A stretch of DNA of 64,000 nt, taken from positions 1,184,001 through 1,248,000 of the forward strand of contig CAVUKA010000001.1 in assembly GCA_963741945.1 (NCBI GenBank), given 5' to 3'. Under the pieces are notes generated by a model, which saw nothing but the letters and a program-made list of their open reading frames with translations, did no database searches and was not told where the DNA came from. This document shows positions 30,734-53,062 of this stretch, one piece after another. This DNA comes from an uncultured Gemmatimonadales bacterium (GTDB lineage Bacteria > Gemmatimonadota > Gemmatimonadetes > Longimicrobiales > RSA9). Positions within the stretch are counted from its first letter, which is position 1. Each line of letters begins with the position of its first letter. The translations under genes and the position numbers were made by a program.

Positions 30734-30909
30734 GGACAGCTCCGGGTAAGGAAGAACTCGCGCGGCTATCCGACCGGCAGCGCAAGACATGTTCCCGCTC
30801 CAGGCCATCGCGCGCGGGGCCCGGAGCCGTACATTGGGCACATGGGGGAGCCCCGGGGCGCCGCCCGACGCCAGCCGGAACCCGCGCGAACCTCCAACCG
30901 GAGCCGGAG

Positions 30910-31656
30910 ATGGACCACCGCGTGGTGCCGCGCCGCGTAACCACGATCGCCGCGCTGGCGACGCTGATGTCGGCCGCGCCCGCGTGCCGCCGGAGCGCCG
31001 ATGTCTGGCTGGAAGGGCGGACCCTCTCCGCAACTTCCCGGGGCACGGCCGATGACGCCTCGCCTGCCCACCCGGCCGCGTCCTACACGCTCGACAGCAG
31101 GGAGCTGTGGGCGGCGGACAGTCTGACGTCCGCGTACTCCGAGCCGCCGCGCGCCGGGAGGCTGGCGGGCGGCGTGGCCGCCCAGCCCGTGGACACGGCC
31201 ACCGGCCTCGACGTCCGCTATGCCACTGCGCGCTCGGTGAGCCGCGTCGTCTTCCCCATGGAAGTCCGGAAGGCGGGGCGCGTGGAGCTGCAGATCGACC
31301 TGGCGCTCGCCGACGTCGAGATCGGAGGCACGGGGCTCCCGCGCGTCGAAACGAGCGGCGCGATCCTGGACCAGGACGGCGCGCCGGTCCCCGGCGGGGA
31401 CATCGGCACCCTCACACTGGAGATCCGCGGCGACGGGGCCGTGGTCATCGACCAGTTCCCCGACGCTACGGATGCCCTCCAGGCGAACGGCCGCTATACG
31501 CGCACCCTGAGCGGGCCGCTCGGAGGCGTGCGCCTGGCCCGCGGCCGCTATCAGGTGGGGATGGACCTGTGGCTCGAGGCCTCCGCCGCCACGGCGAGCG
31601 GGCCGTACCAGCTCGCGCGCATCGGGCAGGCGACGGCGACGCTTCGCGTCCCCTGA
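30910..31656 (+). CDS. Hypothetical exported/lipoprotein
   Basis: GGAG RBS; signal-like N-terminus with Cys; GC3-rich codon usage. Confidence 0.6.
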   Translation: MDHRVVPRRVTTIAALATLMSAAPACRRSADVWLEGRTLSATSRGTADDASPAHPAASYTLDSRELWAADSLTSAYSEPPRAGRLAGGVAAQPVDTATGLDVRYATARSVSRVVFPMEVRKAGRVELQIDLALADVEIGGTGLPRVETSGAILDQDGAPVPGGDIGTLTLEIRGDGAVVIDQFPDATDALQANGRYTRTLSGPLGGVRLARGRYQVGMDLWLEASAATASGPYQLARIGQATATLRVP

Positions 31657-31665: not shown

Positions 31666-33165
31666 CTACTCCGTCGCCGCTGCCTCCGCCACCGTTCCCC
31701 CCGCCGCGGCGTGCGCCTGCGACTGCGCGCTCCCGCGCGGGAAGACCAGCGCCACGGCGATTCCCAGCGCCGCCACCACCATCATCCCGACATACACGGA
31801 ATGGAGGCCCGCGGCCATCGCCTGGCGGAGCGCTTCCAGCTGCTCGGGCGGCACTGAGCCACGGAGCGCCGGGTCGAGCGCGGTGTTCGGGTCCAGCTGC
31901 ACATTGGCCTCGTGCAGGTGCGTCGTGAGCAGCGCGCCGAGCCCCGCCACGGCGATGGCTCCACCAATGGTGCGGAAGAACTGCGTGCTGCCGGTAGCCA
32001 CGCCCCGGAGTCGCCACGGCACGGCGTTCTGCACGGCCACGAGGTAGGGCGTGGAGACCAGGCCGAGGCCCACGCCGGTCACCAGCATCGCGCCCATGAG
32101 CAGCCCGCGGGAAGCGCCCGGGGGGGCGAACGCGAGGATGGCCGTCCCTGCGAACGTCGCCATTGCGCCCAGCACGCCCAGCGGCCGATACCCAACGCGC
32201 AGGAGCAGCCAGCCCGCGGCGGTGCTGGCGATCGGCCAGCCGATGGACATGGGGGCCAGTGTCATGCCGGCGTCCACCGCCGTCCCGCCGAGCACCCCCT
32301 GGGTGAACATGGGGACGAACGCGGTGGCGCAGAACAGAACGGTCCCCAGCACCACGTTTCCGGCGCTCGACACGGAGATCACGCGGTTCCGGAACAGGTG
32401 GAGTGGGAGCATCGGCTCGGCGGCGCGGCGCTCCTGGGCGAGGAAGAGGCCCGCACCGACGAGGGAGAGGCCCAGAAGGCCGAGGGTGCGCCAGTCGTTC
32501 CAGCCGAACATCTCCGTCCCTTCCAGGAGCGTCAGGAGAAGCACGGCCACGGAGACGGTGAGCAGCACGGTCCCGAGGATGTCCAGCCGGTGCTCCCGCC
32601 TGGCCTGCCGCTCCCGCAGGTACAGCTGGAGCAGCACCACGGACGCCACGCCGAACGGGACGTTCAGGTAGAACACCCAGCGCCAGCTGAGCAGGTCCGT
32701 CACCAGCCCGCCCACGGCCGGGCCGACGAGACTGGAAACGCCCCACACGCCGGAAAACAGCCCCTGGATCTTTCCCCGCTCCTCGAGCGGGTAGATGTCG
32801 CCGATGAGGGTGGTGGCCACGGGCATTACCCCGCCGGCGCCCAGGCCCTGGATGGCCCGGAACGCGATCAGCTGGTTGAAGCTGCCGGCCAGTCCCGAGA
32901 GCATCGAGCCGGCCATGAACAGCAGCGCACTGAGGATGTAGACGCGCCGACGGCCGTAGAGGTCGGCCAGCTTGCTGAACAGCGGGACCACCGTGGTGGA
33001 CGTCAGGAGGTACGCCGAGAATACCCACGAATACCGTGCGACACCGCCCAGCTCGGCCACGGCCGTCGGCATGGCCGTGCCCACGGCGGTGGCTTCCAGC
33101 GCGGCCAGGAACATCCCGAGGATGAGGGCCGCCGTTACGATTCTACGGTCGCGTCCCGGTTTCAT
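31666..33165 (-). CDS. MFS drug:H+ antiporter (DHA2/MDR type)
   Basis: LAALEATAVGTAMP, KLADLYGRR, FRAIQGLGAGG, WRWVFYLNVP; about 14 TM. Confidence 0.92.
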   Translation of the reverse strand: MKPGRDRRIVTAALILGMFLAALEATAVGTAMPTAVAELGGVARYSWVFSAYLLTSTTVVPLFSKLADLYGRRRVYILSALLFMAGSMLSGLAGSFNQLIAFRAIQGLGAGGVMPVATTLIGDIYPLEERGKIQGLFSGVWGVSSLVGPAVGGLVTDLLSWRWVFYLNVPFGVASVVLLQLYLRERQARREHRLDILGTVLLTVSVAVLLLTLLEGTEMFGWNDWRTLGLLGLSLVGAGLFLAQERRAAEPMLPLHLFRNRVISVSSAGNVVLGTVLFCATAFVPMFTQGVLGGTAVDAGMTLAPMSIGWPIASTAAGWLLLRVGYRPLGVLGAMATFAGTAILAFAPPGASRGLLMGAMLVTGVGLGLVSTPYLVAVQNAVPWRLRGVATGSTQFFRTIGGAIAVAGLGALLTTHLHEANVQLDPNTALDPALRGSVPPEQLEALRQAMAAGLHSVYVGMMVVAALGIAVALVFPRGSAQSQAHAAAGGTVAEAAATE

Positions 33166-33273
33166 GCGGGGGGAAGGATCGCCCGTGCGGGGCGGCCGGT
33201 CAACGGGTGCCGTGACCTCCTTCGCGCCGCCAACTGGTGTCCACCGGCGCTGGCGCGCCGGCGGGCGGCGCGA

Positions 33274-34140
33274 TCAGCCTGCCGCTCGGTCCGACGGCGC
33301 TGCTGGAGGCGGTGGTGCGGCTGGCCGGGCGACCACCGATCGGACCGCGGCCGCGTGCGGACGACGATTGACTCCCGCAGGGAGCGAACGCTGGATCCAT
33401 GCCTTCTGGCGGCGCCGCATCACTTCCGCCGCCACGGCCGTCGGGGTCCCCGGGGCGATGGGGGTGTAGAGGTCCCGCCGCCGCGTGAGGTCCCGCACCA
33501 CCGCGTCCGTCAGCGATGGCCGCTCACGACCGCGCTCCGCCAGGTACGCGGCGATATCCAGCGACTCCAGCCGCAGCGACATGGGCCGGAAGAATCGGGG
33601 CCGCGACGCGCCCGGCGGGAATACGTGGTGCAGCCCGCCGCTGTACGCCAGGATCATCCGCCCCGTGCCGAGCGCCTGCAGCACCTCCACCACGCCGGGC
33701 TTCACCGTCATCGGCGCCCCCGTTTTGTCCTTCCCGTTCGGCCGCATCATTCGGCCCTCGGGAAAGATCGCCAGCATGGAATGCGGGTCGTCGATCTCAT
33801 CCAGAACCCGGGCCCAGCTCCGGTCACGGCGGCGCGTGATCGGGACCGCGTTCGGAACCAGGAGCCGGAAGATCCGACCTTCGATCGGGCGGTCCATGGT
33901 CTCCCGGGCGACGGGCAGCACCGCGTGCTTCGACATCTTCCGCAGCACGCGGTTCGGCACCACGGCCACGTAGATCCCTTCGGCCAGGCTCGTGTGGTGA
34001 AGGACGGCGATCAGGCGGATGTCGTCCCACGGGTCCGCCGGGACGTCCCCCACCCACTCGGTATGGATGCGATACAGCGCGCGGCTCGCGTGCTTGACCG
34101 CGAGCAGTGCGGCGTAGCTGAATATGGAAGCCGTGTTCAT
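33274..34140 (-). CDS. Lysophospholipid acyltransferase (PlsC-like) family protein
   Basis: HHTSLAE (HxxxxD/E block), IFPEGR, YSGGLHHV. Confidence 0.7.
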   Translation of the reverse strand: MNTASIFSYAALLAVKHASRALYRIHTEWVGDVPADPWDDIRLIAVLHHTSLAEGIYVAVVPNRVLRKMSKHAVLPVARETMDRPIEGRIFRLLVPNAVPITRRRDRSWARVLDEIDDPHSMLAIFPEGRMMRPNGKDKTGAPMTVKPGVVEVLQALGTGRMILAYSGGLHHVFPPGASRPRFFRPMSLRLESLDIAAYLAERGRERPSLTDAVVRDLTRRRDLYTPIAPGTPTAVAAEVMRRRQKAWIQRSLPAGVNRRPHAAAVRSVVARPAAPPPPAAPSDRAAG

Positions 34141-34336
34141 GCGCGCATGCCCCTCTTGGGATGCATCCCTTGAGAGCAGTGCAAGACCCCGGCCGCGCTC
34201 GGGACCGGAGCCCGCTGCCGCCAAACGGGCGGCGCGGAACTACATACTGTAGCGAACGGACGCCCACGCGGCCAGCGCAGCTCGCCGGCGGACGCCCGTC
34301 ACAGGGGGAGAAACCTCTCGCGCTGTCCGTCCGGCG

Positions 34337-34594
34337 CTACGCCCCGGCGACCCACTCACCCGAGTCCGAGTCGACGCCCAGGGCCAGCTCGTTGTCCCGC
34401 TGCTCCCTGCGCACACGAACGCCGTCCACCGCGTCGGCCATGGCGTTCAGAAAATGCCGGACCTCCGCCGAATGGCGACAGCAATCAGGCACGCTCCGCT
34501 CGACGCAGTCCATGCACGAGCTACGCAGCGCGCGGCTGATGTTCTGCAGCTCCTCAATGGAGAGCCGCCCCGGATCCATGTGGATCTTGATCAT
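34337..34594 (-). CDS. Small Cys-rich hypothetical protein
   Basis: Strong RBS AAGGAGG; 85 aa with CMDC...CCRH; directly downstream of citF. Confidence 0.55.
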   Translation of the reverse strand: MIKIHMDPGRLSIEELQNISRALRSSCMDCVERSVPDCCRHSAEVRHFLNAMADAVDGVRVRREQRDNELALGVDSDSGEWVAGA

Positions 34595-34650
34595 GCTTCC
34601 TCCTTCCCCCGGGCGCCCCTGGGGGTGCCGGGTGCAGGGATGGGCCGTTC

Positions 34651-36264
34651 CTACTCGCGATTCGCCACCTGGAAGACCGTGTCCAGCACGGTCCCGTCCA
34701 CCCATTTCACGATGGCTACCGGCCGGTCGGTGACCCGCGGCGGCGCCGGCGCGCCGCCAATCATCCGGTCCACCTCGGCCTTGATCTCGGGCAGCGGCCG
34801 TATGGGAAGGCCGGAGCCGGCCGTGGCCCGGATCAGGTCCTCCCGCTTCGGGTTGATGGCGATGCCACGTTCCGTCACCACGACGTCGATGAGCTCGCCC
34901 GGGCCGGTGAGCGTGGTCACCCGATCCACCAGCACCGGAATGCGATCGCGGAACGCCGGCACGGCCAGGATGGTGCACCCGCTGAACAGGCAATTCTGCC
35001 AGCCACCGATCCCGTGGAGCAGCATGCCGTCCGAGTGGGTGACCACGTTGGCGTTGAAGTCCACGTCCACTTCTGTGGCGCCCAGCACCACGGCGTCCAC
35101 CATGGAGGCGAAGTTCCCCTTCCCATGGTAGTTGTAGGAGGTGAACGGCGATGTGGCGACGTGGCGCGCATCGCTCCCGATGGACTGCACGCCCGCCAGG
35201 TCGAACGTCTGGCCGTCCAGGATGTAGTCGGTGAGCCCCTCCCGCAGCAGGTCCACCAGGTACTTCGTCGAGCCGCCCCGGACGAACCGGGCCTTCACGC
35301 CCGCCTCCTTCATCAGCTCCTTCAGATAGCCCACGAAGGCCAGGGCGATTCCGCCCGCGCCCGCCTGGAAGCTGAAGCCGTCGCGCATGATCCCGGCTTC
35401 CTTGAGGAAGCGGGCCACGTACTCGGCAATGAGCAGCCGGTCCGGGCTCTTCGTGATCTCGGTGGTGCCGGACACGATCTTCGACGGGTCGCCCACGGAG
35501 TCCACCACCACGACGTGGTCGACGTTGTTGCCCTGGATCTGCCAGGGGATGCACGGGAACGGCACGACGTTGTCCGTCACCACGATGACGTGGTCGGCGT
35601 ACATGGAGTCGGCCAGGGCGAAGCCCAGGGAGCCGCACGCGGACGGCCCGTGCGAGCCATCCGCGTTGCCGAACGGGTCCGCCGTGGGGGCGGCGATCAC
35701 CGCGATGTCCACGTGGACTTCCCCGTCCTGGATGGCCTGCCAGCGGCCGCCGTGGGAACGGAGCACGCCCAGCCCCGCCATCCGGCCGCGCGACGTGTAG
35801 TCGCCCAGCGGCCCGTTCATGCTCCCCTCGATGTGGTGCACCACGCCCCGATCCATGAGATCCACCACCGGCGCCTGCACGGGGAACGACGCGCTCGGGA
35901 ACCAGCGCAGCCCGCTGACCCCGATTTCCGCCGCGGCCTGGAGCGCCGCGACCGCCACCCGGTCACCGTTCCGGAAGTGGTGGTGCGTGGAAATCGTCAT
36001 CCCATCCCGGAGTCCGCACGCTTCCAGCGCCGCGCGCAGGCTCGGAACGCGCTTGTCCCCGTTCGCCGGATAGTCGCTGGACGAGCGGATCGGCGGCCCG
36101 GCCTTGCGCCCCTCCGGTACGCGTGCACCCACGCCCGCGTACGCCACCTGCGACTCCCCGTTCACCACCAGCGGCACCCGCCGACCGGCCGCGTTCTCCA
36201 CCAGCTCCGCCCACGCCGGGCCCTCCAGCCAGGGCGCTGCCGGTACCTTCGTGATCACACTCAC
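34651..36264 (-). CDS. citF: Citrate lyase alpha subunit (citrate CoA/ACP-transferase)-like
   Basis: GLRDGMTISTHHHFRNGD, RSHGGR, ACGSLG, GFSFQAGAGG, LGATEVDVDFNANV, GIGG, VTERGIAINP, DGTVLD. Confidence 0.92.
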   Translation of the reverse strand: MSVITKVPAAPWLEGPAWAELVENAAGRRVPLVVNGESQVAYAGVGARVPEGRKAGPPIRSSSDYPANGDKRVPSLRAALEACGLRDGMTISTHHHFRNGDRVAVAALQAAAEIGVSGLRWFPSASFPVQAPVVDLMDRGVVHHIEGSMNGPLGDYTSRGRMAGLGVLRSHGGRWQAIQDGEVHVDIAVIAAPTADPFGNADGSHGPSACGSLGFALADSMYADHVIVVTDNVVPFPCIPWQIQGNNVDHVVVVDSVGDPSKIVSGTTEITKSPDRLLIAEYVARFLKEAGIMRDGFSFQAGAGGIALAFVGYLKELMKEAGVKARFVRGGSTKYLVDLLREGLTDYILDGQTFDLAGVQSIGSDARHVATSPFTSYNYHGKGNFASMVDAVVLGATEVDVDFNANVVTHSDGMLLHGIGGWQNCLFSGCTILAVPAFRDRIPVLVDRVTTLTGPGELIDVVVTERGIAINPKREDLIRATAGSGLPIRPLPEIKAEVDRMIGGAPAPPRVTDRPVAIVKWVDGTVLDTVFQVANRE

Positions 36265-37613
36265 GTGCCACCCCCGTCCGAGCCGGTCGAGGCTGGCGAC
36301 GCCGTGACCCCGCCCGCGTCCACACCGCTCCCGTTCACCAGTCCCATCTCCCTCGCCCGCTCCACCAGCCGCCTCGCCCGCAGCACCACCGGCGGATCGA
36401 TCATCTTGCTGCCCAGGCTCACCACACCCAGCCCGCGCGCTTCCGCTGCCTCGAACGCCGCCACGATCTTCAGCGCTCTCTCCAGTTCCGCGGCCGTCGG
36501 CGCGAAGCCCGCGTGGATCACCCGGATCTGGCGCGGATGGACGCACCCCATCCCGATGAAGCCCATGGCGTGCGACGCCCGGGCCCACTCGAGCAGCCCC
36601 TCCACGTCCGCCACATCACCGTAGACCGAGTCGATGGCCTGCACGCCGGCCGCCCGCGCCGCGTTCGCCAGCCGCTCCCGCGCCCACAGCGTCTCGGCCC
36701 CCTGCTTCGTCTTGGCCACGCCCATGTCGGCGGTGTAGTCCTCCAGCCCGATGGTCAGCGCCGCTACCATTCCGGACGCGCGCGCAATGGCGAACGCGTT
36801 CTCGATCCCGAGCGCCGACTCCAGGATCGGCATGAGCCAGACCGGCCGCTCGTCGTGCGACGGCAGCGCCGCCGACATCCGGATGGCCGCGATCCGGTCG
36901 GCGACTTCCACCACCTGCGCCGCCTCCTCCACCTTGGGGATCAGCACCAGGTTCGGGAGCTCGGGCACGATGGCATCGAGGTCCTCCAGCCCCAGCGGCA
37001 GCTGGTTGATCCGCACCATCCGCTCGGCCGGGCCGAAGTCCACGCAGCGGAGGGCGTTCCGCACCAGAAGCCTCGCCGCCGCCTTCGCGTCCCGATGGAC
37101 GGAGTCCTCGAGGTCCAGGATCACGCCATCCGGACCGTGGAGCCCCGCGTTCAGCATGAACTTGGGCTCGTTCCCCGGCAGGTAGAGACGCGACCGGCGG
37201 AGCCGGTCCTTCGCCGTGCGACTGCCACGCGTGGCCGGGGCGGCGCCGTCGGCGCACGGGATCGCCGCCGCGGCGTCGTTCGCCACCAGCCCGGCTGCGC
37301 GGGCGGCGGCCTCGACGCGGGCCGCAATGACCCACGGCACCGCACCCTTGTCGTTCACCGACACGCGGGCGGCTGCCACGCCGAGCAGCGCAAGGGTGTC
37401 GAGGACCGTGGCGCGGATGGCGTCGCCGAAAAGCGACTCCACCCTCGACGTCAGTGACAGCTCGATCCCATCACCGCCCACCTCCACCGCGACGTGCAGG
37501 TCGGAGCGGACGTCATCGCCCGCTCGACCCGCCTCACCCCGGGGCGTGGCGGCCGCGACCGCCGTTGCGCCGCCTCCCTCTCCCGATGGTGTCGCGCCCG
37601 CCTGATCGCTCAT
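36261..37613 (-). CDS. citE: Fusion of citrate lyase ACP (CitD-like) and beta subunit (CitE, citryl-CoA lyase-like)
   Basis: N-terminal RSDLHV...SRVESLFGDAIR...NDKGA...IAARVEAA (CitD-like); RRSRLYLPGN, LDLEDSV, IPKVE, ILESALG, HPRQI, MIDPPV (CitE). Confidence 0.88.
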   Translation of the reverse strand: MSDQAGATPSGEGGGATAVAAATPRGEAGRAGDDVRSDLHVAVEVGGDGIELSLTSRVESLFGDAIRATVLDTLALLGVAAARVSVNDKGAVPWVIAARVEAAARAAGLVANDAAAAIPCADGAAPATRGSRTAKDRLRRSRLYLPGNEPKFMLNAGLHGPDGVILDLEDSVHRDAKAAARLLVRNALRCVDFGPAERMVRINQLPLGLEDLDAIVPELPNLVLIPKVEEAAQVVEVADRIAAIRMSAALPSHDERPVWLMPILESALGIENAFAIARASGMVAALTIGLEDYTADMGVAKTKQGAETLWARERLANAARAAGVQAIDSVYGDVADVEGLLEWARASHAMGFIGMGCVHPRQIRVIHAGFAPTAAELERALKIVAAFEAAEARGLGVVSLGSKMIDPPVVLRARRLVERAREMGLVNGSGVDAGGVTASPASTGSDGGGT

Positions 37614-38824
37614 CCCGACCGCCCGCCCGCGGCCACGGGCGAGGCCAGCGCCGCGAGGATCGCGTCCGTCACTTCCGTGGTGCTGTCCGCGCCCTGCGCG
37701 ATGGCGTCCGGTCCGCCGGAGATCCGCATCATGTCATAGCTGCGCACTTTCCCATCCTGCACCACGGCCGCCACGGCGGTGCGCACCTGCTCGGCCTTGC
37801 CGGTCTCGCCCACGTGGTCCAGGAGCATCGCCGCGCTCAGGATCATGGCGATCGGGTTCACGATGGGCGGGTCGAGGCTCTCGTATTTCGGAGCCGAGCC
37901 GTGCGTGGGCTCGAAGACCGCTACCTCGTCCCCGATGTTCCCGGAGCAGGCGAAGCCGAGACCGCCGACCAGCCCGGCGAAACCGTCGCTCACGATGTCG
38001 CCGAACATGTTCCCGGCCACGATCACCCCGTAGTCCTCGGGGTTCTTCGTCAGCCACATCATCTGGGCATCGATGTTCGTGGACCAGAGTTGGATGTCGG
38101 GGAAGTCCTCGTGCGCCTTCTTCGCTTCCTCCTCCATCATGCCGCTGGTCTCGCGCAGCACGTTCGGCTTCTCGCACACCGTCACGCTCTCGTAGCCATG
38201 CTTCAGCGCATACTCGAACGCCGCCCTCGTGATGCGGGCGCACGCGCGGCGGGTGAAGATGCGAGTCGAGATCGCCAGGTCGTGCGAGGGCGTATCGGCG
38301 AAGCGGTCGAACTTCGGGTGCGTGCCCAGCGCATCCCGCACCGCCTTCGGCGGGTTCGTCCACTCCACGCCCGCGTACAGACCTTCCGTGTTCTGCCGGA
38401 AGATCACCGCGTCCACCACCGGCTCGTCCATGCCGCCATCCATGCCCCGCCGGACGAAGTTCAGCGGGTTGCCCGGGAACGACCGGCAGGGGCGGATGCA
38501 GAGGTCGAGGTCGAAGCGCTGACGCAGCCCCACGATCGGGCTGAAGTACACGTAGCCCTGGTCCTTCAGCTCTCGCTTCAGCTCCCGCGCCGCCGCCGTC
38601 TTCGGCTTCGACGTGATGGCGCCGAACAGGCCGAGCTTGTGCTCCGCCAGCAACTCCACCGTCCGCTCCGGCAGCGCGTTCCCCTCGTTGACCCAGAACT
38701 CCCATCCGATGTCCGCTTGGATGTATTCCGCGTCGAAACCCACCGCTTCCAGAACGCGCAGCGCTTCCGGCAGGACCACTTTGCCGATGCCGTCGCCCGG
38801 CATCGTCACGACCGTGTGCTTCAT
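37610..38824 (-). CDS. Isocitrate/isopropylmalate dehydrogenase family, homoisocitrate-dehydrogenase-like
   Basis: PGDGIG, LFGAITS, YFSPIVGLRQ, RQNTEGLY, KPNVL, NMFGDIVSD, FEPTHGSAP, NPIAMILS. Confidence 0.85.
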   Translation of the reverse strand: MKHTVVTMPGDGIGKVVLPEALRVLEAVGFDAEYIQADIGWEFWVNEGNALPERTVELLAEHKLGLFGAITSKPKTAAARELKRELKDQGYVYFSPIVGLRQRFDLDLCIRPCRSFPGNPLNFVRRGMDGGMDEPVVDAVIFRQNTEGLYAGVEWTNPPKAVRDALGTHPKFDRFADTPSHDLAISTRIFTRRACARITRAAFEYALKHGYESVTVCEKPNVLRETSGMMEEEAKKAHEDFPDIQLWSTNIDAQMMWLTKNPEDYGVIVAGNMFGDIVSDGFAGLVGGLGFACSGNIGDEVAVFEPTHGSAPKYESLDPPIVNPIAMILSAAMLLDHVGETGKAEQVRTAVAAVVQDGKVRSYDMMRISGGPDAIAQGADSTTEVTDAILAALASPVAAGGRSG

Positions 38825-38852
38825 GCTCCTCCTATCGGCTCTCGAATCCCAC

Positions 38853-40802
38853 TCAAGCGTGAACGGTTATCCCCAGCGTCGCCCGTACCTTCGCCTCCGC
38901 CCCCCCGGCCACCACCAGGCTCTGCGGCACTCGCCCGAGCGCGGGAAAGCGGTACGTCTCTTCCCGCCACTCGATGGTGCCCCGGCGGAAATTCACCATG
39001 ATCTCCTCGCCCGGGATGATCGTGGGCTCACCCGCGGCCACCTGTGCCGCGAGCGCCTTCTCCACCGCGTGCACCAGCCCCGGGCATTCGACGCAGATGA
39101 ACCCGTTGTTGAACGCGTTCCGCTGGTACGTCTGCGACAGGCTCTCGGCGATCACCAGCGCGATCCCCTTGGCCTGCAGCGCCGTGGCCGCCTGCTCCCG
39201 GCTGGAGCCCGTGCCGAAGTTGCGCGTGCCCACCAGGATGTCGCCCGCGGCCGTGCGCCCCGCGAACTCGGGGTCGTAGTTGGCCATGACCACGGCCGCC
39301 ATCTCGGACGGCGAACGGTCCCGGTACGTGTGCTCCTTGCCGTAGATGCCGTCCGTATTCAGGTTCTCCTGCGGCACGAACACGAGCCGCCCCGTGACCT
39401 GCGCGGGGAAGCCGGGGAGGATCTCGACCGAGTCGTCGGCATCATCCAGGCGATCGAGGGCGCGGAAATCGTACGGCGGAACCCCGGCCGCCACGCGCCC
39501 GTCCTTGATGCGCCCGGCCAGCGCCGAGGCCGCCACCACGGCCGGACTGGCCAGGTAGACGCGCGCATCGCGGGAGCCCATGCGCCCCTTGAAGTTGCGG
39601 TTCGTCGCCGAGATCCCGACTTCCCCGTCCTGCAGCAGCCCCTCACCCAGCCCGATGCACGGGCCGCAGCCGGGCGGCAGCACTCTGGCGCCGGCATCCA
39701 GCAGCGCTCCCCACGCACCGCTCGCCTCCGCCTTCTCCTGGATCTCCCGGCTCGCCGCAGCCACGTAGAACGACACCCGGGGCGACACACGCTGCCCCCG
39801 GACCACCTCCGCGGCCGCTTCCAGGTCCTCCAGCCTGCCGTTCACACACGACAGGAGGTAGGCCCTGTCGATCTCGATCCCCTCCCCTTCCACCTCCCCC
39901 ACCGGGCGCCCCGTCTGCACCGTGTCGGGCCCGGTCAGGAACGGGCTCACCTTCCCCACGTCCACGATGATGCGGCCCACGTAGCGCGCATCCGAATCGG
40001 GCCGCGGCGGGGCAGCGCTCCAGGCGAAGAGCTGCGCGTCCGTGATCCTGTGGTGGTCGGCGGCCTCCAGCCTCGCCTTCCGCTCCTGCAGGAACTGGAT
40101 CGTGCGCGCGTCCACGGGGAACCACCCGGCCAGCGCGCCCCACTCCGTGGTCATGTTGGCGATGGTCATGCGGGCGGCCATGTCCAGCGAGGCCACGCCC
40201 GGCCCGGCGAACTCCACCACCCGGTTCAGCACTTCGCCGCTCGAGTAGAGCGAGCAGAGCGTGAGGATCACGTCCTTCCCGCTGACCCCCGGGCGCAGCT
40301 GTCCTTCCAGCACCACCTGGACGGTTCCCGGCACCTGCCACCAGAACTCGCCCGTGGCCCAGATCACCGCCGCATCCGTCCGCACGACGGGCGTGCCCAG
40401 GGCCCCGACAGCGCCATAGGTGTTGGCGTGCGAATCGGAGGCGACCACCAGCGTGCCCGGGAGCGCATACCCGCGCTCGATGATGATCTGGTGACCGATC
40501 CCCGTCCCCGCGGGGTGGAAATCCAGCCCGTGCTCCCGCGCGAACGTCCGGATCCGGGTGTACTTCTCGAGGTTCTCGGGCGAGCGGTTCTGGATCTCGT
40601 GGTCCAGCACGATCACCGGCTGCCGCGGGTCGTGGATGCGATCCACGCCGATGGCCCTGAACTTCGACATCACCGCCGCGGTGTTGTCGTGGGTCAATAT
40701 GTGCCGCGGCCGGAGGGACACCATGTCCCCCGGCCGGAGCGGTCGATCGGGCCCATCGACCATGTGGGCCCGTGCGATCTTCTCCACCATCGTCGCGCCC
40801 AT
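38853..40802 (-). CDS. lysF: Single-chain homoaconitase-like [4Fe-4S] hydro-lyase
   Basis: THDNT, LDH, GIGHQ, ASDSH, RTDAA.IWATG..WWQVP, SCVNGR, CGPCIGLG, SATNRNFKGRMGS, NTDGIY, NFGTGSSREQAA; swivel domain fused. Confidence 0.82.
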   Translation of the reverse strand: MGATMVEKIARAHMVDGPDRPLRPGDMVSLRPRHILTHDNTAAVMSKFRAIGVDRIHDPRQPVIVLDHEIQNRSPENLEKYTRIRTFAREHGLDFHPAGTGIGHQIIIERGYALPGTLVVASDSHANTYGAVGALGTPVVRTDAAVIWATGEFWWQVPGTVQVVLEGQLRPGVSGKDVILTLCSLYSSGEVLNRVVEFAGPGVASLDMAARMTIANMTTEWGALAGWFPVDARTIQFLQERKARLEAADHHRITDAQLFAWSAAPPRPDSDARYVGRIIVDVGKVSPFLTGPDTVQTGRPVGEVEGEGIEIDRAYLLSCVNGRLEDLEAAAEVVRGQRVSPRVSFYVAAASREIQEKAEASGAWGALLDAGARVLPPGCGPCIGLGEGLLQDGEVGISATNRNFKGRMGSRDARVYLASPAVVAASALAGRIKDGRVAAGVPPYDFRALDRLDDADDSVEILPGFPAQVTGRLVFVPQENLNTDGIYGKEHTYRDRSPSEMAAVVMANYDPEFAGRTAAGDILVGTRNFGTGSSREQAATALQAKGIALVIAESLSQTYQRNAFNNGFICVECPGLVHAVEKALAAQVAAGEPTIIPGEEIMVNFRRGTIEWREETYRFPALGRVPQSLVVAGGAEAKVRATLGITVHA

Positions 40803-40885
40803 CGATCCTCCTCGCCTCGACCCCTTCTCCGCCTGGGTCGCGGCTTGCTGGGATTGCCGAGCGGGCCCGCGCGGCCCGCCGGCGC

Positions 40886-42286
40886 CTACCGGTCCGCCCG
40901 TGTCAGCCGCATGAGCGCCGCTGCGCTCTCCTGCCGCTCCAGCGTCCACACGGCCTCTATCAGGCGGCGCTGGGCGTCCCGCGTCATCACGGGCTCCGCC
41001 AGCGCCGCGAACTTCTCCTCCACCTCACCATCCGTCAGCGGGTTCCGCGGATCGCCCTTCGGGTAGTCCAACTGCTTCGTCAGCTCGCGGCCATCCGTGG
41101 TCCGGACGGTCACATGCACCCGCTGCAGCGCCGGGAACACCGCCTCGATCTCCGCGTCCCCCACCACTTCCACCTTCTCCAGCTGCGCCCGGACCTCCGG
41201 GTCCATGATGCGCGCTTCCTCGAACTGCCGCGGCGTCACCTGCCGGTCCACGATGGCCGCCGCGATCACGTAGGGCAGGCTGTGGTCCGCCGTCTCCTTC
41301 GTGCGCGGATCGTACTTGCTCGCGTCCGCCAGGATGTCCGCCGCCCGGGCCAGTGACCGGATCCGGACCTTCTCGATCTCAGCCGGCTTCAGGTCGTGCT
41401 CGAGCACCACGTCCAGCACGGCCGAGATCGGCGCGTGCGTCAGCGCTTCCGTCGGGAACGCCTTCATCCCGCACCGCTCGATCCGCCAACTCTCGCCGAG
41501 CCCCTCCGTCAGCACCTCCAGCTTCCACTCGGGGCCCATCACGTGGACCAGCCCCTCCTTCCCTTCCACCACCCCCTCCGGACCCGTGTACCCACGCTCC
41601 GCCAGCAGCGCAGCCATCACCCCCGCCTGAGTCGCCATCGGGTCCGCCGTGTTCTTCATCATCGACAGCTTCCCCGCCACCACCCCGCCCACCGTGGCGT
41701 GGCTCGATCCGCTGATCCCGATCGCGTGCCGGATCTGCTCCGCGTCCAGCCCCGCCAGCCGCCCCGCCACGACCGGCGACACGAACGCCGTCAGCGTGGC
41801 ATGGTGCCAGCCCCGCTCCCGGATCCCCGGGAACGCCGCTTCGCAGAAGCGCATCTCCAGCTCGTGCCCCAGCACGATCCCCAGGATGACGTCCCGGCCC
41901 CCCAGCCCCTGCCGCTCCGCCATCGCCAGCGCCGCCGGGATCAGGTCCGACGGATGCGACGGGTCCTGCTGCCAGTAGATGTCGTTGTAGTCCATCACCC
42001 GGACCATCAGCGCGTTCGCCAGCGACGCCGACACCACGTCCATGCGACGCCCGCTCCCCACCACCGTGGCCGGCCCCTCCCCCGCCACTTCGTCCAGAAC
42101 CTGGAGCGCGATCTTCACGTCGTGCTGACCGTACCCGCCCAGCGCGCAGCCCAGCGAGTCCAGCAGGTAGCGCTTCGCCTCGTGAACGGCCCGCGGGCCC
42201 AGCTCGTCGAACGAGAGATCGGCTGCCCAGCGGGCGAGCTGCGCGCTCACGGTCCCGACGGGTGGGGAAGAAACGGTCGTCGCCAT
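40886..42286 (-). CDS. MmgE/PrpD family dehydratase
   Basis: LLDSLGCALGG, RVMDYND, SHPSD, GWHH, LSMMK, KETADHSLPY, PKGDPRNP. Confidence 0.9.
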   Translation of the reverse strand: MATTVSSPPVGTVSAQLARWAADLSFDELGPRAVHEAKRYLLDSLGCALGGYGQHDVKIALQVLDEVAGEGPATVVGSGRRMDVVSASLANALMVRVMDYNDIYWQQDPSHPSDLIPAALAMAERQGLGGRDVILGIVLGHELEMRFCEAAFPGIRERGWHHATLTAFVSPVVAGRLAGLDAEQIRHAIGISGSSHATVGGVVAGKLSMMKNTADPMATQAGVMAALLAERGYTGPEGVVEGKEGLVHVMGPEWKLEVLTEGLGESWRIERCGMKAFPTEALTHAPISAVLDVVLEHDLKPAEIEKVRIRSLARAADILADASKYDPRTKETADHSLPYVIAAAIVDRQVTPRQFEEARIMDPEVRAQLEKVEVVGDAEIEAVFPALQRVHVTVRTTDGRELTKQLDYPKGDPRNPLTDGEVEEKFAALAEPVMTRDAQRRLIEAVWTLERQESAAALMRLTRADR

Positions 42287-42457
42287 GCGGCCTCCGGGGG
42301 GGTCAGGGTCGGTCCTCTCGCGAAGCTATGACACCGCCCCCCGCGGGGCTGTGGGGAATCCCTTGAAATCGTGGCGGGTGCGGGACGACGAAAACGCATG
42401 CAGGGAAGGAGGGATTCCCTTACAGACCGCTCCCCCGCCTCCCCCGCCCTGCCCCTC

Positions 42458-43024
42458 CTAGCGAAACGGCAGGTACGCCATGAAGTCGGCGTGGTGCACG
42501 ATGATCGCCTCGGTGCTCCGCTTGACGAGGTCGCCCTCGCCGGCGTGCGCGGCGATGATGTGGCACACGGCATCCGGCACGCCCGCCTCCAGGGCGAGGG
42601 CGACGCCGGTGAAGGGGTGGCGGAGCGCCCGGCCGCGAGCGCTCTGCCGGGTGTCGTCGCCTGCCTTCTCGTACTCCAGCAGCTTGCCGACATCGGCCAG
42701 GATCGCGCCGGCGATGACCGTGTCCCGGTCGATTTCGAGCGCGTGGCCCATGAAATCCGTCATCGCTCGCGCGCCATCGCGGGCGATGTGGACCACGCAC
42801 CGCTTGTGCTGCATGAACGTGGCGCGGCAGTCCTTTACCAGGAGGGTGAACGGGATCCGCTCCAGGTCGCCCGCCGTGAGCGGGCTCCGCTCCAGCGCCA
42901 GCTCCCACGTGCGTGCGACGCGCTCCCTCAGCTCGCGATCCTCGATCCACGCCAGCTCCGGCCACAGCCGCTCCACGTCCGACCGCAGCGCTTCGCCCGC
43001 CGATCCCGTCATCGTGTCCGTCAT
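42458..43024 (-). CDS. HD/HDIG-domain protein with AD in place of HD
   Basis: IPFTLL, MQHKR, AGAILADVGKLLEY, LRHPFTG, HIIAAH, HHADF. Confidence 0.8.
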   Translation of the reverse strand: MTDTMTGSAGEALRSDVERLWPELAWIEDRELRERVARTWELALERSPLTAGDLERIPFTLLVKDCRATFMQHKRCVVHIARDGARAMTDFMGHALEIDRDTVIAGAILADVGKLLEYEKAGDDTRQSARGRALRHPFTGVALALEAGVPDAVCHIIAAHAGEGDLVKRSTEAIIVHHADFMAYLPFR

Positions 43025-43150
43025 GATCCCGGTCTTCCTGTTCGTATCCGCCCGCTCCGGGGCGTCTCGTTGGCGGGGGCTCGCCGGCAGAAGGCATACA
43101 TCCCCGGCCGGCCCCGGGCAACTCGCGGGCGACGCCGAAGGGCCCCGGGG

Positions 43151-44068
43151 CTAGATGAAGAAGCGGTCCACGAGCATGAGGATCAGGAGGGCGGGCAGGT
43201 AGAGGATGGAGCCGAAGAAGAGGTGCCAGGCGCGCCGGTCGTCGCGTACCTGCCAGAGCCGGCCGCCGAGCACAACCATGGCGCCGCCCAGGACCAGTGC
43301 GCCGGCGCCATAGATCCAGTCGATGAGCCCGGTGCCGACCAGCACCATGCTGGAGACCAGAAGGAGCGCGGAGTAGAACGTGCTCTCGAGCCCGAGACGC
43401 CGCCCCTGCGGGTCCACCACGGTGAGCATGCGCATCCCGCCCCGTGCGTAGTCATCGCGGTAGACCCAGGCCAGGGCGTAGAAGTGCGGCATCTGCCAGA
43501 AGAAGACCACGCCCATGAGCGCCAGGGCGGCGAGGGTGATGGGGTGCCCGGCGGCCGTCCACCCCGCGAGAGTCGGGAGCGAGCCCGGCAGCGCGCCGAT
43601 CAGGGTGGCATGGTGGGTCCGTCGCTTGAGCGGCGTGTAGACCAGGATGTAGGTGATCAGGCTCGTCGCCACGAGCACGAGCGTCTCGAGGTTGACGAAC
43701 AGCCCGAGGTGCACCAGCCCGAGCACCGAAAGCAGGAGAGCCAGCGCCAGAGCCGTCCCCGGCGACACGCGGCCCGCCGGGAGCGGCCGCATGCGCGTCC
43801 GCTTCATGAACGCGTCCGTCTCCCGCTCCCACCACATGTTCAGCGCGTTCGCCCCCGCCGAGGCCAGCGCGGCGCCGAACACGGTGTTGAAGAGGCGCAG
43901 CAGCTCGAGGTCGCGCCCGGCCGCCATCAGGTATCCCGCCCCCGTGGTGAAAACGACGAGACGCGTGATCCCCGGCTTCGTCAGCTCGGCCAGGTCGCCG
44001 AACACGGTCCGGAAGCTCGTCGACCGCGTCCGCTCTCTACCCGTTGATGTCTCGGTGGTCGCAGGCAC
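43151..44068 (-). CDS. cyoE: Protoheme IX farnesyltransferase (heme o synthase)
   Basis: LTKPGI, NM..ERETDAFMKRT..RPLP, YTPLKR, FFWQMPHF, DDYARGG, FFGSILYL. Confidence 0.93.
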   Translation of the reverse strand: MPATTETSTGRERTRSTSFRTVFGDLAELTKPGITRLVVFTTGAGYLMAAGRDLELLRLFNTVFGAALASAGANALNMWWERETDAFMKRTRMRPLPAGRVSPGTALALALLLSVLGLVHLGLFVNLETLVLVATSLITYILVYTPLKRRTHHATLIGALPGSLPTLAGWTAAGHPITLAALALMGVVFFWQMPHFYALAWVYRDDYARGGMRMLTVVDPQGRRLGLESTFYSALLLVSSMVLVGTGLIDWIYGAGALVLGGAMVVLGGRLWQVRDDRRAWHLFFGSILYLPALLILMLVDRFFI

Positions 44069-44129
44069 GCCGCAAAGTAACGGGATGCGGGTGCGGCCGG
44101 GAGGCCGCCCCCCGCCCTCCCGCCCCCCG

Positions 44130-45234
44130 GCGGACCTGGTACCAAATTCCAGATAGTCCTCATCTGCTATCCTCCTGCCCCGCCACCACCGGCACCTTGC
44201 CGCCATGCCACGCACCCCTCGCCCGTACCTGCCCGGCGCAGTCTTCCACGTCACCGCGCGCACCCAGGGCCACATGCCCTGGTTTACGCCGGATGTCCGC
44301 GGCGCCATGGTGGCTCGCCTGACCTCATCCCTCGCCTCCTCGGACGGTCGTCTGCTCGCATACGCCGTCATGCCGAACCACCTGCATCTCGTTCTGCAGC
44401 AGGGGGATTGGCCACTCGGCCGTGTGCTTCAGCCAGCCCTCCGCAAGATCGCGCTACTGGTCCAGAGCCGGCATGGCGTCGAGGGTCACGTGTTCGAGCG
44501 ACGGTTCCGCGCCTCCCCCTGCCTCGACCCCGACTATGCTCGCAATGCGATCGTGTACACCAACCTCAACCCCGTGCGAGCGGGGCTGACGCCGGACGCC
44601 GTGGAGTATCCGTGGACGTCCCACCAGCGCTACGCGGACGCTACACCGGCGAGCTCGACAGCCGTCGACTGCCTCGCCGGACTGCGCCTGTTCGCGGCGT
44701 CGATTCGCGCCGGACCGCCGGCACTGCGGCGGAGCTACCTCCGGTACGTCGCATGGCGCCTCGAGTGCGACGCCATCCGGGGTGCGACCGGAGCTTCGGA
44801 CCACCACCGGCCACTTCCGCCTCTTCCGCCCCTGGTCCACGCGGCCGGGCGCTGGTCCGAGGCCTACGCGCCCCTGTTCTGCTCGCCTGCCCCGGATCCG
44901 GTCCGGCCAGCGCCACGCCCCGACCTCCGCGACATCGCGCGCCGGGTGCTGGCCTCCGCGCCCGAAACCGTGGATCTCGCGCGAGTGCGCAGCCGCAGCA
45001 AGGCAACCAATGTGGTCCGGATCCGTCGGGCCATGATCATCCGCATGGATGCCGCAGGGCACAGCAGGGGAGCCATCGCACACTATGCGAGGGTGAGCGT
45101 GCAGTGCGTCTCACACGTGTTGGTTACGGAGAGGACGCGACGAGGGCGGGATCTTCACAAGGAGTACCCGCAAGCATGACGGAGACCAGCGCGGGAGGCC
45201 CCTTCTAAGAATTTGGATTCGGTACCAGGTCCGC
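44130..45234 (+). mobile_element. RAYT-type HUH transposase unit bounded by 14-bp inverted repeats
   Basis: GCGGACCTGGTACC (44130-44143) and its exact reverse complement GGTACCAGGTCCGC (45221-45234) flank the transposase gene. Confidence 0.65.
44205..45179 (+). CDS. REP-associated tyrosine transposase (Y1 HUH) with C-terminal HTH
   Basis: MPR.PR...PGAVFHVTAR, YAVMPNHLHL (HUH), GHVFERRF, YTNLNPVRAG (catalytic Tyr), YPWTSH; C-terminal helix-turn-helix. Confidence 0.88.
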   Translation: MPRTPRPYLPGAVFHVTARTQGHMPWFTPDVRGAMVARLTSSLASSDGRLLAYAVMPNHLHLVLQQGDWPLGRVLQPALRKIALLVQSRHGVEGHVFERRFRASPCLDPDYARNAIVYTNLNPVRAGLTPDAVEYPWTSHQRYADATPASSTAVDCLAGLRLFAASIRAGPPALRRSYLRYVAWRLECDAIRGATGASDHHRPLPPLPPLVHAAGRWSEAYAPLFCSPAPDPVRPAPRPDLRDIARRVLASAPETVDLARVRSRSKATNVVRIRRAMIIRMDAAGHSRGAIAHYARVSVQCVSHVLVTERTRRGRDLHKEYPQA

Positions 45235-45266
45235 AAAAAACCGGCGCCGAGCTGGCTCGGCGCCGG
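45235..45266 (-). terminator. Intrinsic terminator of the pnt operon
   Basis: 11-bp perfect stem CCGGCGCCGAG/CTCGGCGCCGG followed by T6 on the minus strand. Confidence 0.85.
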
Positions 45267-45299
45267 GTCCCTGCCCTGCACCGGCACACCCCGCCGCGT

Positions 45300-46715
45300 C
45301 TACACCTTCTTCAGCTCGCTCACCAGCGCTGTCAGCACCTTCTTCGCGTCGCCGAACAGCATCCGGTTGTTGTCCTTGTAGAACAGCGGGTTGTCCGTCC
45401 CCGCGAACCCCGGATTCAGGCTCCGCTTGATGACGATGGTGTTCTTCGCGAAATCCGCGTTGATGATCGGCATCCCGTACAGCGGGCTGTCCTTGTTGGT
45501 CCGCGCGTCCGGGTTCACCACGTCGTTGGCGCCCACGATCAGCACCACGTCCGTGCGCTCCAGCTCGCTGTTGATGTCGTCCGCCTCGTACAGCTGGTCG
45601 TACGGCACATTGGCCTCCGCCAGCAGCACGTTCATGTGACCGGGCATGCGCCCCGCCACCGGGTGGATCGCGAACTTCACGCTCACACCCTTCTCGGCGA
45701 GCAGGTCCGACAGCTCCCTCGCCTGGTGCTGCGCCTGCGCCACGGCCAGCCCGTAGCCCGGGACGATCACCACGCTCTCCGAGTAGGACATGAGGACGGC
45801 GGTGTCCTCGGCGTTGATCTCCTTCACGATCTTGGGCCCACCCTCGCCCGCCGCCACGGCCGCCGTCTGCGAGCCGAAAGCGCTGAACAGCACGTTCGCC
45901 AGCGACCGGTTCATCGCGCGGCACATGATGGCGCTCAGGATGATCCCGGACGCACCCACCAGCGCGCCGGCGATGATCAGCACGTTGTTGTTCAGCACGA
46001 ACCCCGTGGCGGACGCCGCGAGGCCCGAATACGAGTTGAGCAGCGCCACCACGACCGGCATGTCCGCGCCCCCGATGGGCATCACGAACATGATGCCGAA
46101 GATCAGCGACAGCGCGGCCAGTGCGACGAACCACCCGGCGCCCGCGCCCGGCACCGCCGTCAGGTAGCCACCGATGCCCAGCGTGGTCAGGAACACCAGC
46201 AGGTTGACGAAATTGCCGCCCGGGTAGGTGAGCGCCTTCTCGAAGTGACCTTCGAGCTTCGCCCACGCCAGGAAGCTCCCCGACAGGGTCACGGCGCCGA
46301 TGAGCACCGAAAGCACGATGGTCAGGGCGACGGTGATCGTCGCGTCCGCCGTCGACGGCTTCAGGAACTCCACGGCCGCGACCAGCGCCGACGCGCCACC
46401 GCCGAAGCCGTTGAAGATGGCCACCATCTGCGGCATGGCCGTCATCTTGACCCATTTGGCCAGGAACCAGCCAATGCCGGAACCGACCGCGAGGCCGACC
46501 ACGATCCACAGCCAGTCCAGCCCGCCCTGCAGCACCTGTCCATCGACCATGGTGGCGACGATGGCCAGGAGCATACCCAGGGCGCCCAGCAGGTTGCCTC
46601 GCCGCGCCGTCTTCGGGGAGCTGAGCTGCTTCAGCCCCAGGATGAACAGGACTGACGCGACCAGGTACGCAATCTTGATGAAGACCGGCAGCGGTCCTCC
46701 AATTTGTGCCTCCAC
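45300..46715 (-). CDS. pntB: NAD(P) transhydrogenase beta subunit
   Basis: MTAMPQMVA, IGGADMPVV, VPGYGLAVAQAQH, HPVAGRMPGHMNVLLAEA, GANDVVNP. Confidence 0.97.
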   Translation of the reverse strand: MEAQIGGPLPVFIKIAYLVASVLFILGLKQLSSPKTARRGNLLGALGMLLAIVATMVDGQVLQGGLDWLWIVVGLAVGSGIGWFLAKWVKMTAMPQMVAIFNGFGGGASALVAAVEFLKPSTADATITVALTIVLSVLIGAVTLSGSFLAWAKLEGHFEKALTYPGGNFVNLLVFLTTLGIGGYLTAVPGAGAGWFVALAALSLIFGIMFVMPIGGADMPVVVALLNSYSGLAASATGFVLNNNVLIIAGALVGASGIILSAIMCRAMNRSLANVLFSAFGSQTAAVAAGEGGPKIVKEINAEDTAVLMSYSESVVIVPGYGLAVAQAQHQARELSDLLAEKGVSVKFAIHPVAGRMPGHMNVLLAEANVPYDQLYEADDINSELERTDVVLIVGANDVVNPDARTNKDSPLYGMPIINADFAKNTIVIKRSLNPGFAGTDNPLFYKDNNRMLFGDAKKVLTALVSELKKV

Positions 46716-52889: not shown

Positions 52890-53062
52890 GCTGTGTCCGC
52901 ACCCGGGGCGAGCACGCCTGGCGCGTCCCGGCCGGATCGGCGAGCGGGTCACCGGGGACATGGGCGGCACCACTGGGCCTGTGCCCGAAAATTGCAACCC
53001 CGGGAGCGCCGAACGGCGAGGCAGCGAAACCGTTGCAGGATCCACGGAGCGGAGCAGAGCAC

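Follow-up and report, generated by a model that had tools for sequence, protein, structure and literature searches.

The stretch of DNA analysed here, called the window below, comprises 64,000 nucleotides from an uncultured Gemmatimonadales bacterium (assembly GCA_963741945.1, contig CAVUKA010000001.1, positions 1,184,001 to 1,248,000), and its G+C content is about 70%. Between positions 34651 and 43024 it carries six genes on the minus strand, and the best explanation of these genes is one self-contained, horizontally spread metabolic module. The first gene of the module (42458-43024) encodes an atypical HD-domain protein of 188 aa, which scores 30.2 bits on TIGR00277 (HDIG). It is followed by the gene for an MmgE/PrpD-family protein of 466 aa (40886-42286), with 243 bits on PF03972 (MmgE_PrpD_N) and 158 bits on PF19305 (MmgE_PrpD_C). 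The third gene encodes a homoaconitase of the fungal Lys4 type, its large and small subunits fused into a single polypeptide, with Aconitase and Aconitase_C domains and a match to TIGR00139 (38853-40949, likely start near 40802). The fourth product, of 404 aa, is a beta-decarboxylating Iso_dh dehydrogenase of the isocitrate/homoisocitrate/isopropylmalate family (37610-38824; PF00180, 251 bits). The last two genes encode a CitD-CitE fusion (36261-37613), which consists of an acyl carrier protein (ACP) domain (PF06857, 67.7 bits) and an HpcH_HpaI domain (PF03328, 166.5 bits), and a CitF protein of 537 aa, a lyase alpha subunit of the acetyl-ACP:carboxylate transferase type (34651-36264; PF04223, 422 bits). 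An earlier note, made from the letters of the window, had listed six co-oriented genes here, and Pfam and NCBIfam searches show that all six are real and lie on the minus strand at the coordinates it gave.

The finer layout also agrees with that note. The dehydrogenase and CitD-CitE genes overlap by ATGA at 37613-37610, the CitD-CitE and CitF genes overlap by GTGA at 36264-36261, and the gap of 28 nucleotides between the homoaconitase stop at 38853 and the dehydrogenase ATG at 38824 contains the Shine-Dalgarno-like sequence AGGAGGAG. The likely start of CitF is the GTG at 36264; the longest open reading frame (ORF), which extends to 36588, overlaps the CitD-CitE gene and is an unlikely start. 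Residue 50 of the homoaconitase ORF is methionine in 57 of 63 aligned homologues, and translation probably begins at this Met50, near 40802, and not at the ORF start. With this start, about 83 nt would separate the PrpD stop from the homoaconitase, without overlap. A promoter scan of positions 33000-45500 found no promoter-like site, and a terminator scan of the same region gave three terminator-like sites that are not above shuffled sequences; the sole strong terminator-like site follows pntB and is upstream of ubiA. No credible Rfam match to a riboswitch or leader was found at 33000-46000 (a single chance-level miRNA match, E 0.06), and seven related loci gave zero Rfam matches at gathering score.

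The six-gene arrangement is conserved far beyond chance. A scan for the CitD-CitE fusion over one genome per prokaryotic species returned at least 596 stretches, at least 572 of them encoding a relative. Loci were counted for the best 80 of these at least 572 relatives, with genes scored by tblastn at E<=1e-10 and at least 45% identity. All six genes occur in 53 of the 80 loci, and 51 of the 80 keep the order and strand of the window; the remaining loci are mostly interrupted by contig ends. CitD-CitE is present in all 80 loci, with none lacking it where there is room and none cut by a contig end. CitF is present in 78 (absent with room in 2, cut in none), the dehydrogenase in 77 (absent with room in 3, cut in none) and the homoaconitase in 70 (absent with room in 3, cut in 7). 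The PrpD-like and HD genes are each present in 60 loci, the former absent with room in 8 and cut in 12, the latter absent with room in 5 and cut in 15. Median protein identities to the window copies lie at 60-72%. The carriers among the best 80 include records of Gemmatimonadota, Acidobacteriota/Terriglobia, Latescibacteria, Eisenbacteria, Rhodothermales, Binatia, Planctomycetota and Thermoanaerobaculia, and a further scan with an acidobacterial copy added Ignavibacteriales and Melioribacter. Apart from 'Bacterium BMS3Abin03', the carriers of the 160 loci listed over the two scans are metagenome bins.

The module also holds together when its layout changes. An Ignavibacteriales chromosome of 34% G+C carries all six genes in the shuffled order dehydrogenase, HD, homoaconitase, PrpD, CitD-CitE and CitF, with toxin-antitoxin-like small genes between them. 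In eight genomes the PrpD gene is absent from the lyase locus, and in four of the eight an orthologue of 53-74% identity is found elsewhere. At all three such places fetched, the relocated PrpD gene adjoins the HD gene, and at two of them a complete homoaconitase gene is also present; the third holds a 35-residue homoaconitase fragment, and the rest of that gene adjoins the lyase genes. That the six genes are merely neighbours with unrelated functions is very improbable. This explanation is contradicted by the co-conservation across phyla and by the stop/start overlaps, which point to translational coupling; the set is kept despite its shuffled order, and its genes co-occur where the module is divided between two places in the genome. 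The earlier note had named a lack of co-conservation elsewhere as the outcome that would undo its proposal, and this outcome is contradicted on the same grounds.

Two side observations concern these rearranged copies. On a Gemmatimonadota chromosome the homoaconitase gene is apparently split, with parts about 120 kb apart (L172:9518-9622 and L021 near 7932), which reflects a rearrangement or else a fault in the assembly. Two Ignavibacteria-type copies (L166:14221-18092 and L167:10605-18351) are interspersed with selfish-looking genes for a 23S rRNA intervening-sequence protein (IVP), DUF5615/DUF433 proteins and HEPN/nucleotidyltransferase pairs.

Within the host phylum the distribution is patchy. 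At E<=1e-60 the fusion occurs in 12 of 201 sampled genomes, the host included, and in 9 of 98 genera. The module is thus an accessory element and not core metabolism. ORFs inserted within the module in relatives encode an insertion sequence (IS) integrase, UPF0150, DinB-like and toxin-antitoxin-like proteins; in one acidobacterial bin the IS-type integrase gene stands between the homoaconitase and dehydrogenase genes (L017:7473-8300). Clustering of the flanking ORFs over the 80 loci revealed no seventh conserved gene, with nothing recurring in more than 11 loci, and the cluster representatives are housekeeping proteins such as GalT, thioredoxin-like proteins, kinases and UbiA. UbiA, PntAB, the major facilitator superfamily (MFS) protein, the B12-radical S-adenosylmethionine (SAM) protein and a 316-aa ORF were considered as further members and rejected, as they are not co-conserved beyond L002, the closest relative among the matches listed, and a few weak UbiA matches.

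The lyase end of the module resembles citrate lyase at the level of families. In the fusion protein, the CitD-type carrier spans about residues 25-110 and the CitE-type acyl-ACP/CoA lyase about residues 137-424. The carrier scores 63.9 bits on TIGR01608 (citD), just above the cut-off of 63.5. Its serine, Ser37, lies in the motif G-x-x-G-x-[DE]-[VI]-R-S-D, is kept in all 81 sequences compared and is presumably the equivalent of Ser14 in E. coli. The CitE part belongs to the HpcH_HpaI fold family and reaches 258.8 bits on TIGR01588 (citE), under the cut-off of 443.4, and CitF reaches 468.0 bits on TIGR01584 against 501.45. Cluster look-ups return only the label 'citrate lyase subunit beta'. CitG and CitX make and attach the prosthetic group of the carrier (PMC2996986). 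CitG/MdcB (PF01874) and CitX (PF03802) gave zero matches in the host genome, which has 4.09 Mb on 8 contigs at 96.7% completeness, and zero matches in 40 other carriers; the positive controls were matched. CitC, the acetate:SH-citrate lyase ligase (PF08218), has no match in the host. In 15 of the 40 other carriers its matches are only weak and partial (20-33 bits); they extend over positions 9-133 of 182 at most and lie in ORFs of 165-224 aa. PF08218 is also matched in 7 of 14 control genomes, which suggests that related enzymes are being picked up. These features set the lyase apart from a standard citrate lyase. At two lyase loci missing some module genes (L021:12587-16254 and L016:3149-7197), the lyase genes adjoin an ADP-forming acyl-CoA synthetase-like gene, together with a thiolase-like gene in one and a fusion of acetyl-CoA hydrolase/transferase and GNAT in the other; these neighbours hint at acetate or acetyl-CoA handling.

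Within the module, conservation is highest for the HD protein. This protein matches no Pfam family at E<=0.001, and its canonical His-Asp dyad reads Ala-Asp, with A110 kept as Ala in 56 of 59 homologues and D111 as Asp in all 59. Its AlphaFold2 (AF2) model has a predicted local distance difference test (pLDDT) score of 89.5. Foldseek returned only generic HD/HDOD folds for this model, at template modelling (TM) scores of 0.4-0.55, and protein atlas labels are likewise generic HD only. A complex prediction of the HD protein with the ACP domain scored 0.00, in a run made without controls, and speaks neither for nor against such a complex. The HD protein may serve in regulation or may be tied to the ACP prosthetic group.

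The aconitase-family protein scores 664.4 bits on the homoaconitase equivalog TIGR00139, above the cut-off of 529.9, and is weaker on mitochondrial aconitase (173 bits) and on AcnA models (132-144 bits). All 63 homologues keep the Fe-S cysteines C368, C428 and C431. The small-domain loop reads NTD-x-IYGK-x-x-TYR, with Arg543 in 61 of 63. In the homoaconitase and isopropylmalate isomerase enzymes of methanogens, this loop separates carboxylate-bearing from hydrophobic substrates, so the conserved arginine favours a tricarboxylate. Lys4-type homoaconitases are limited to the step between cis-homoaconitate and homoisocitrate, as work on the yeast and Thermus enzymes has established, and a separate dehydratase of the PrpD family would therefore be needed. 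The PrpD-like protein would be this dehydratase/hydratase, carrying out the half-reaction between homocitrate and cis-homoaconitate.

For the dehydrogenase, the best NCBIfam matches are the methanogen homoisocitrate dehydrogenases AksF2 (264 bits) and AksF (255 bits), at about half of their cut-offs, and the best match in the PDB is the homoisocitrate dehydrogenase (HICDH) of Thermus at 193 bits. Residues K313 and Y314 are conserved in 70 and 71 of 71 homologues, respectively. This Lys-Tyr pair is also present in the Thermus isocitrate dehydrogenase (ICDH), and Asp-Ile takes its place in the Thermus HICDH and in an NAD-dependent ICDH. The pair determines the use of NADP(H), so the dehydrogenase is probably NADP-linked.

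Taken together, these families suggest that the substrate is a C7 tricarboxylate of the homocitrate type, on account of the TIGR00139 score, the loop arginine, the PrpD partner and the HICDH-like nearest relatives of the dehydrogenase. In the proposed route, the NADP-type dehydrogenase would interconvert 2-oxoadipate, CO2 and NADPH with homoisocitrate, the Lys4-type homoaconitase would interconvert homoisocitrate and cis-homoaconitate, and the PrpD-family protein would interconvert cis-homoaconitate and homocitrate. CitF would then exchange the ACP-bound acetyl group for the tricarboxylate, and CitE would split the resulting acyl-ACP, so that homocitrate and acetate plus 2-oxoglutarate are interconverted in sum. 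This lyase end reaction would spend neither a free CoA thioester nor ATP. The preferred reading is a homocitrate-type shunt running in the direction of cleavage, from 2-oxoadipate to 2-oxoglutarate and acetate, with a probability of roughly 0.3; its role would be a carbon-conserving salvage of 2-oxoadipate. Homocitrate-type chemistry in either direction, 2-oxoadipate + CO2 + NADPH <-> 2-oxoglutarate + acetate, falls a little short of an even chance. The earlier note had read the cluster as a (homo)citrate pathway without a synthase. Its treatment of the genes as one unit and its family-level assignments stand, as does the Lys4-type call; the substrate is a proposal, with the PrpD-like protein, the dehydrogenase and CitE scoring far below the named-family cut-offs.

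The physiological direction may be slightly in favour of cleavage. The equilibrium of such lyases lies toward cleavage at millimolar concentrations. Citrate and citramalate lyase complexes convert acetyl-ACP and the acid to acyl-ACP and acetate, with cleavage following (PMC9196870). Besides this known direction and equilibrium, the NADP-type dehydrogenase, the failure to find a consumer of 2-oxoadipate and the patchy distribution favour cleavage, and 12 of 201 genomes is a figure typical of accessory catabolic modules. The same chemistry run forwards, from acetate and 2-oxoglutarate to 2-oxoadipate, would be a chain elongation free of ATP and thioester cost, in which ACP-bound acetyl is condensed with the 2-oxoacid, the product is isomerised and then oxidatively decarboxylated, with possible iteration to 2-oxopimelate or 2-oxosuberate. 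This is unlikely, although the family assignments fit it equally well. The top models for the dehydrogenase, AksF2 and AksF, belong to iterative 2-oxoacid elongation, if below cut-off, and the lack of a conserved regulator or transporter is shared with many biosynthetic operons. Moreover, decarboxylation could pull the condensation, since 2-oxoglutarate is abundant, and many carriers come from peat and soil bins, where acetate can accumulate. On the other hand, the forward route has no 2-oxoadipate consumer at hand, with LysW below cut-off in the host and the 40 other carriers and LysA present in the host. The synthesis of an essential product fits poorly with 12 of 201 genomes, and, as far as is known, all characterised lyase complexes of this type cleave (PMC9196870). 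It is likewise doubtful that a lyase-type complex acts here as a condensing enzyme that joins free acetate to a 2-oxoacid, with its carrier loaded without CitG, CitX and CitC, perhaps through the HD protein.

A number of observations weigh against the homocitrate-type shunt. The lack of CitG and CitX in 41 of 41 genomes means that the classical route to the holo-ACP is absent, and the complex may not act like citrate lyase. The dehydrogenase stays below every curated cut-off (264 of 540 bits on NF040626, 255 of 500 on NF040619 and 240 of 410 on TIGR02088). It has a valine where the Thermus HICDH has Arg85, the determinant between homoisocitrate and isocitrate, and its S95, invariant in 71 of 71, aligns with Ser113 of the E. 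coli ICDH. The solved structures nearest to the PrpD-like protein are iminodisuccinate (IDS) epimerase at 142 bits and IRG1/CAD at about 100 bits, ahead of PrpD itself at 64 bits. No PrpD orthologue was found at E<=1e-40 in the genomes G001 and G244-G246, so a five-gene form of the module exists. No transporter or regulator is conserved beside the module in the 80 loci, which is unusual for a catabolic island. Reductive carboxylation is rare as a catabolic step. Finally, no common source of 2-oxoadipate was found, as the lysine 6-aminotransferase reaches only 7 of the 40 other carriers.

The serine in the dehydrogenase bears on another explanation, in which citrate and isocitrate are the substrates. 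In this case, 2-oxoglutarate would be reductively carboxylated and the citrate then cleaved by a true citrate lyase to acetate and oxaloacetate, or the reverse, and the module would link 2-oxoglutarate and citrate. The conserved Ser113 equivalent and the isocitrate dehydrogenase NADP-type Lys-Tyr pair agree with it, as do CitF at 468 bits, just under 501, and CitD at its cut-off. Two Ignavibacteria-type loci have phosphoenolpyruvate (PEP) carboxykinase 5-7 kb away and one has acetyl-CoA synthetase, enzymes of oxaloacetate and acetate handling, yet these genes are on the opposite strand, behind outer-membrane genes. In contrast to Ser113, the position of ICDH Asn115 is isoleucine (I97) in 71 of 71. 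A true aconitase needs no PrpD, yet PrpD is found in 60 of the 68 loci that can be judged, and for the aconitase-family protein the homoaconitase model gives 664 bits, against 173 from mitochondrial aconitase and 132-144 from AcnA. In the host, moreover, AcnA, Icd and two citrate synthases exist apart from the module. Citrate-type chemistry is held to be improbable.

The low named-family scores bear on a broader explanation, in which the module acts on some other 2-substituted malate or hydroxy-tricarboxylate, in catabolism or for a specialised product. Citramalate or 3-methylmalate, a longer homologue, or a plant or fungal acid are the candidates. Three of the six proteins, namely the PrpD-like protein, the dehydrogenase and CitE, are far under all equivalog cut-offs, and for the PrpD-like protein these are 101 of 950 bits (NF042438), 86 of 575 (NF006943) and 67 of 458 (TIGR02330). 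The dehydrogenase positions that recognise the side chain are hydrophobic, with I97 and V98 each in 71 of 71. The patchy, transfer-like distribution suits niche substrates, and a citramalate lyase built from the same three subunits has been described (PMC9196870). Against this, the loop arginine (61 of 63) and the TIGR00139 score favour a tricarboxylate of the homoaconitate type, and genes for tailoring, export or core biosynthesis are not conserved in the vicinity. Such an acid is a serious but tentative alternative, clearly short of even odds. One candidate was discarded, as 2-methylisocitrate is a tertiary alcohol and cannot be oxidised by the dehydrogenase family.

The host genome encodes two citrate synthases, an AcnA-size aconitase and, above cut-off, an NADP isocitrate dehydrogenase; its tricarboxylic acid (TCA) cycle therefore has no gap for the module to fill. 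LeuB is also above cut-off, and LysA of the diaminopimelate (DAP) route is present. LysW was not found in the host and has no match at cut-off in the 40 other carriers; weaker matches below cut-off occur in 29 of the 40, and the two inspected lie among genes for ribosomal protein S1, a peptidase and a rhomboid protein. With LysA present and LysW absent, a LysW-type lysine pathway is not the outlet of the module. The earlier note had proposed checking the genome for a gap that the cluster would fill. The gltA-type, acnA, icd and LysA genes it had asked about are there and LysW is not, and neither a TCA gap nor a LysW-lysine gap for the module to fill was seen. For homocitrate synthase, the host has a single HMGL-like gene, with 178-186 bits on isopropylmalate synthase (IPMS) and homocitrate synthase models whose cut-offs are 414-517. 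A lysine 6-aminotransferase of the host scores 599.7 bits, above its cut-off of 520.8, which none of 14 control genomes reaches, and this enzyme is one possible route to 2-oxoadipate. Its gene (G000:C1:1120002-1121276) lies about 64 kb before the window without obvious pathway partners. Lysine catabolism as a general feeder of 2-oxoadipate was considered and rejected, given the 7 of 40 other carriers with the aminotransferase and the lack of pathway partners in the host neighbourhood. In addition, one further aconitase-family gene exists in the host besides AcnA and the module enzyme, below all LeuC cut-offs, and LeuB is canonical (these and the HMGL-like gene are at L081:15395-16717, L082:2258-4600 and L083:3214-4263). 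The leucine pathway enzymes of the host thus look unusual.

Citrate lyase: The citCDEFXG system of Klebsiella, E. coli and Geobacter bemidjiensis shares with the module the alpha subunit CitF, the beta subunit CitE, the gamma subunit CitD and the invariant carrier serine. In contrast, the ACP of the module is fused to the beta subunit, CitE is far below the equivalog, and CitG, CitX and a convincing CitC are absent. The partners of the module lyase are a dehydratase, a hydratase and a dehydrogenase, and not citrate transport or an oxaloacetate decarboxylase.

Citramalate lyase: The enzyme of Clostridium tetanomorphum has the same three-component, acetyl-ACP-dependent design and acts on a citrate analogue (PMC9196870), and is thus a precedent for a changed substrate. 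The partner enzymes of the module differ in pointing to a tricarboxylate and not to citramalate.

Alpha-aminoadipate lysine pathway: The front end of this pathway shares a Lys4-type homoaconitase above cut-off with the module, and the Thermus HICDH is the nearest solved relative of the module dehydrogenase. There, too, the first dehydration depends on a second enzyme. The module differs in having a lyase complex in the place of homocitrate synthase and a PrpD-family protein in the place of aconitase. The dehydrogenase of the pathway is Lys12 or the Thermus HICDH; that of the module has an NADP-type signature and lacks Arg85, and the host has the DAP route and no LysW.

2-Oxoacid elongation in methanogens: AksA, AksD/E and AksF, which serve coenzyme B, follow the same logic, in which a condensation is followed by isomerisation and then by oxidative decarboxylation. 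Condensation there is the work of a synthase that depends on acetyl-CoA, whereas the module has a lyase complex and a dehydrogenase at about half of the AksF cut-offs. To our knowledge, the bacterial hosts of the module have no need for coenzyme B.

Methylcitrate cycle: PrpC, PrpD, AcnB/AcnD and PrpB also pair a PrpD-family dehydratase with an aconitase-family hydratase, one enzyme being insufficient. The module differs in its decarboxylating dehydrogenase, which is unable to use 2-methylisocitrate, and the PrpD equivalogs are far off. PrpC and PrpB are not found in the cluster or the 37 other window ORFs, the range over which PrpB was searched; the same scan bears out the earlier remark that no citrate, homocitrate or methylcitrate synthase is encoded there.

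Each protein belongs to a known superfamily, and it is the combination that appears to be new: a carrier-fused lyase without citC, citX and citG, a set of PrpD, Lys4-type and NADP dehydrogenase enzymes, and a degenerate HD protein. The earlier note knew of no characterised operon of this composition, and full-text literature searches, which covered articles without their supplementary files, found no description of the combination. If the homocitrate-type reading is true, uncultured bacteria of soil, peat and sediment hold a route between C6 and C5 2-oxoacids outside the textbook pathways, which would be a carbon-conserving return of 2-oxoadipate to the TCA cycle in the case of cleavage, or a chain elongation without thioester cost in the case of synthesis. 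Whatever the substrate, a CitD-type carrier with an invariant serine is present in genomes without the only known enzymes that make and attach its cofactor. The pairing of bacterial relatives of the fungal Lys4 with a PrpD-family partner bears on which enzyme performs the first half of homocitrate isomerisation. Moreover, the annotation 'citrate lyase' could get the module counted as a marker of the reverse TCA cycle in metagenome surveys, and the gene context argues against such a use.

Other genes of the window are described briefly. On the minus strand at 28023-31033, the gene of a B12-binding, DUF4070-containing radical SAM protein overlaps with that of an LPG_synthase_TM membrane protein encoded downstream; the two are not co-conserved with the module and may form a lipid-modifying pair. 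A tricorn-protease-like protein of 1121 aa with PD40 repeats and tricorn C1, PDZ and peptidase S41 domains is encoded at 7969-11334 (minus). A divergent, methionine-salvage-like group at 13185-17050 comprises a class II aldolase (MtnB-like), an IF-2B family isomerase, a purine/methylthioadenosine (MTA) phosphorylase and an amidohydrolase. A KaiC-like double ATPase is followed by a histidine kinase at 53033-55617 (plus), with their ends overlapping. At 56456-58783, the genes for GTP cyclohydrolase I, which carries a long N-terminal extension, and for a DUF1722 protein are divergent from that of a MerR regulator with a B12-binding domain, and this arrangement is CarH-like and possibly responsive to light or B12.

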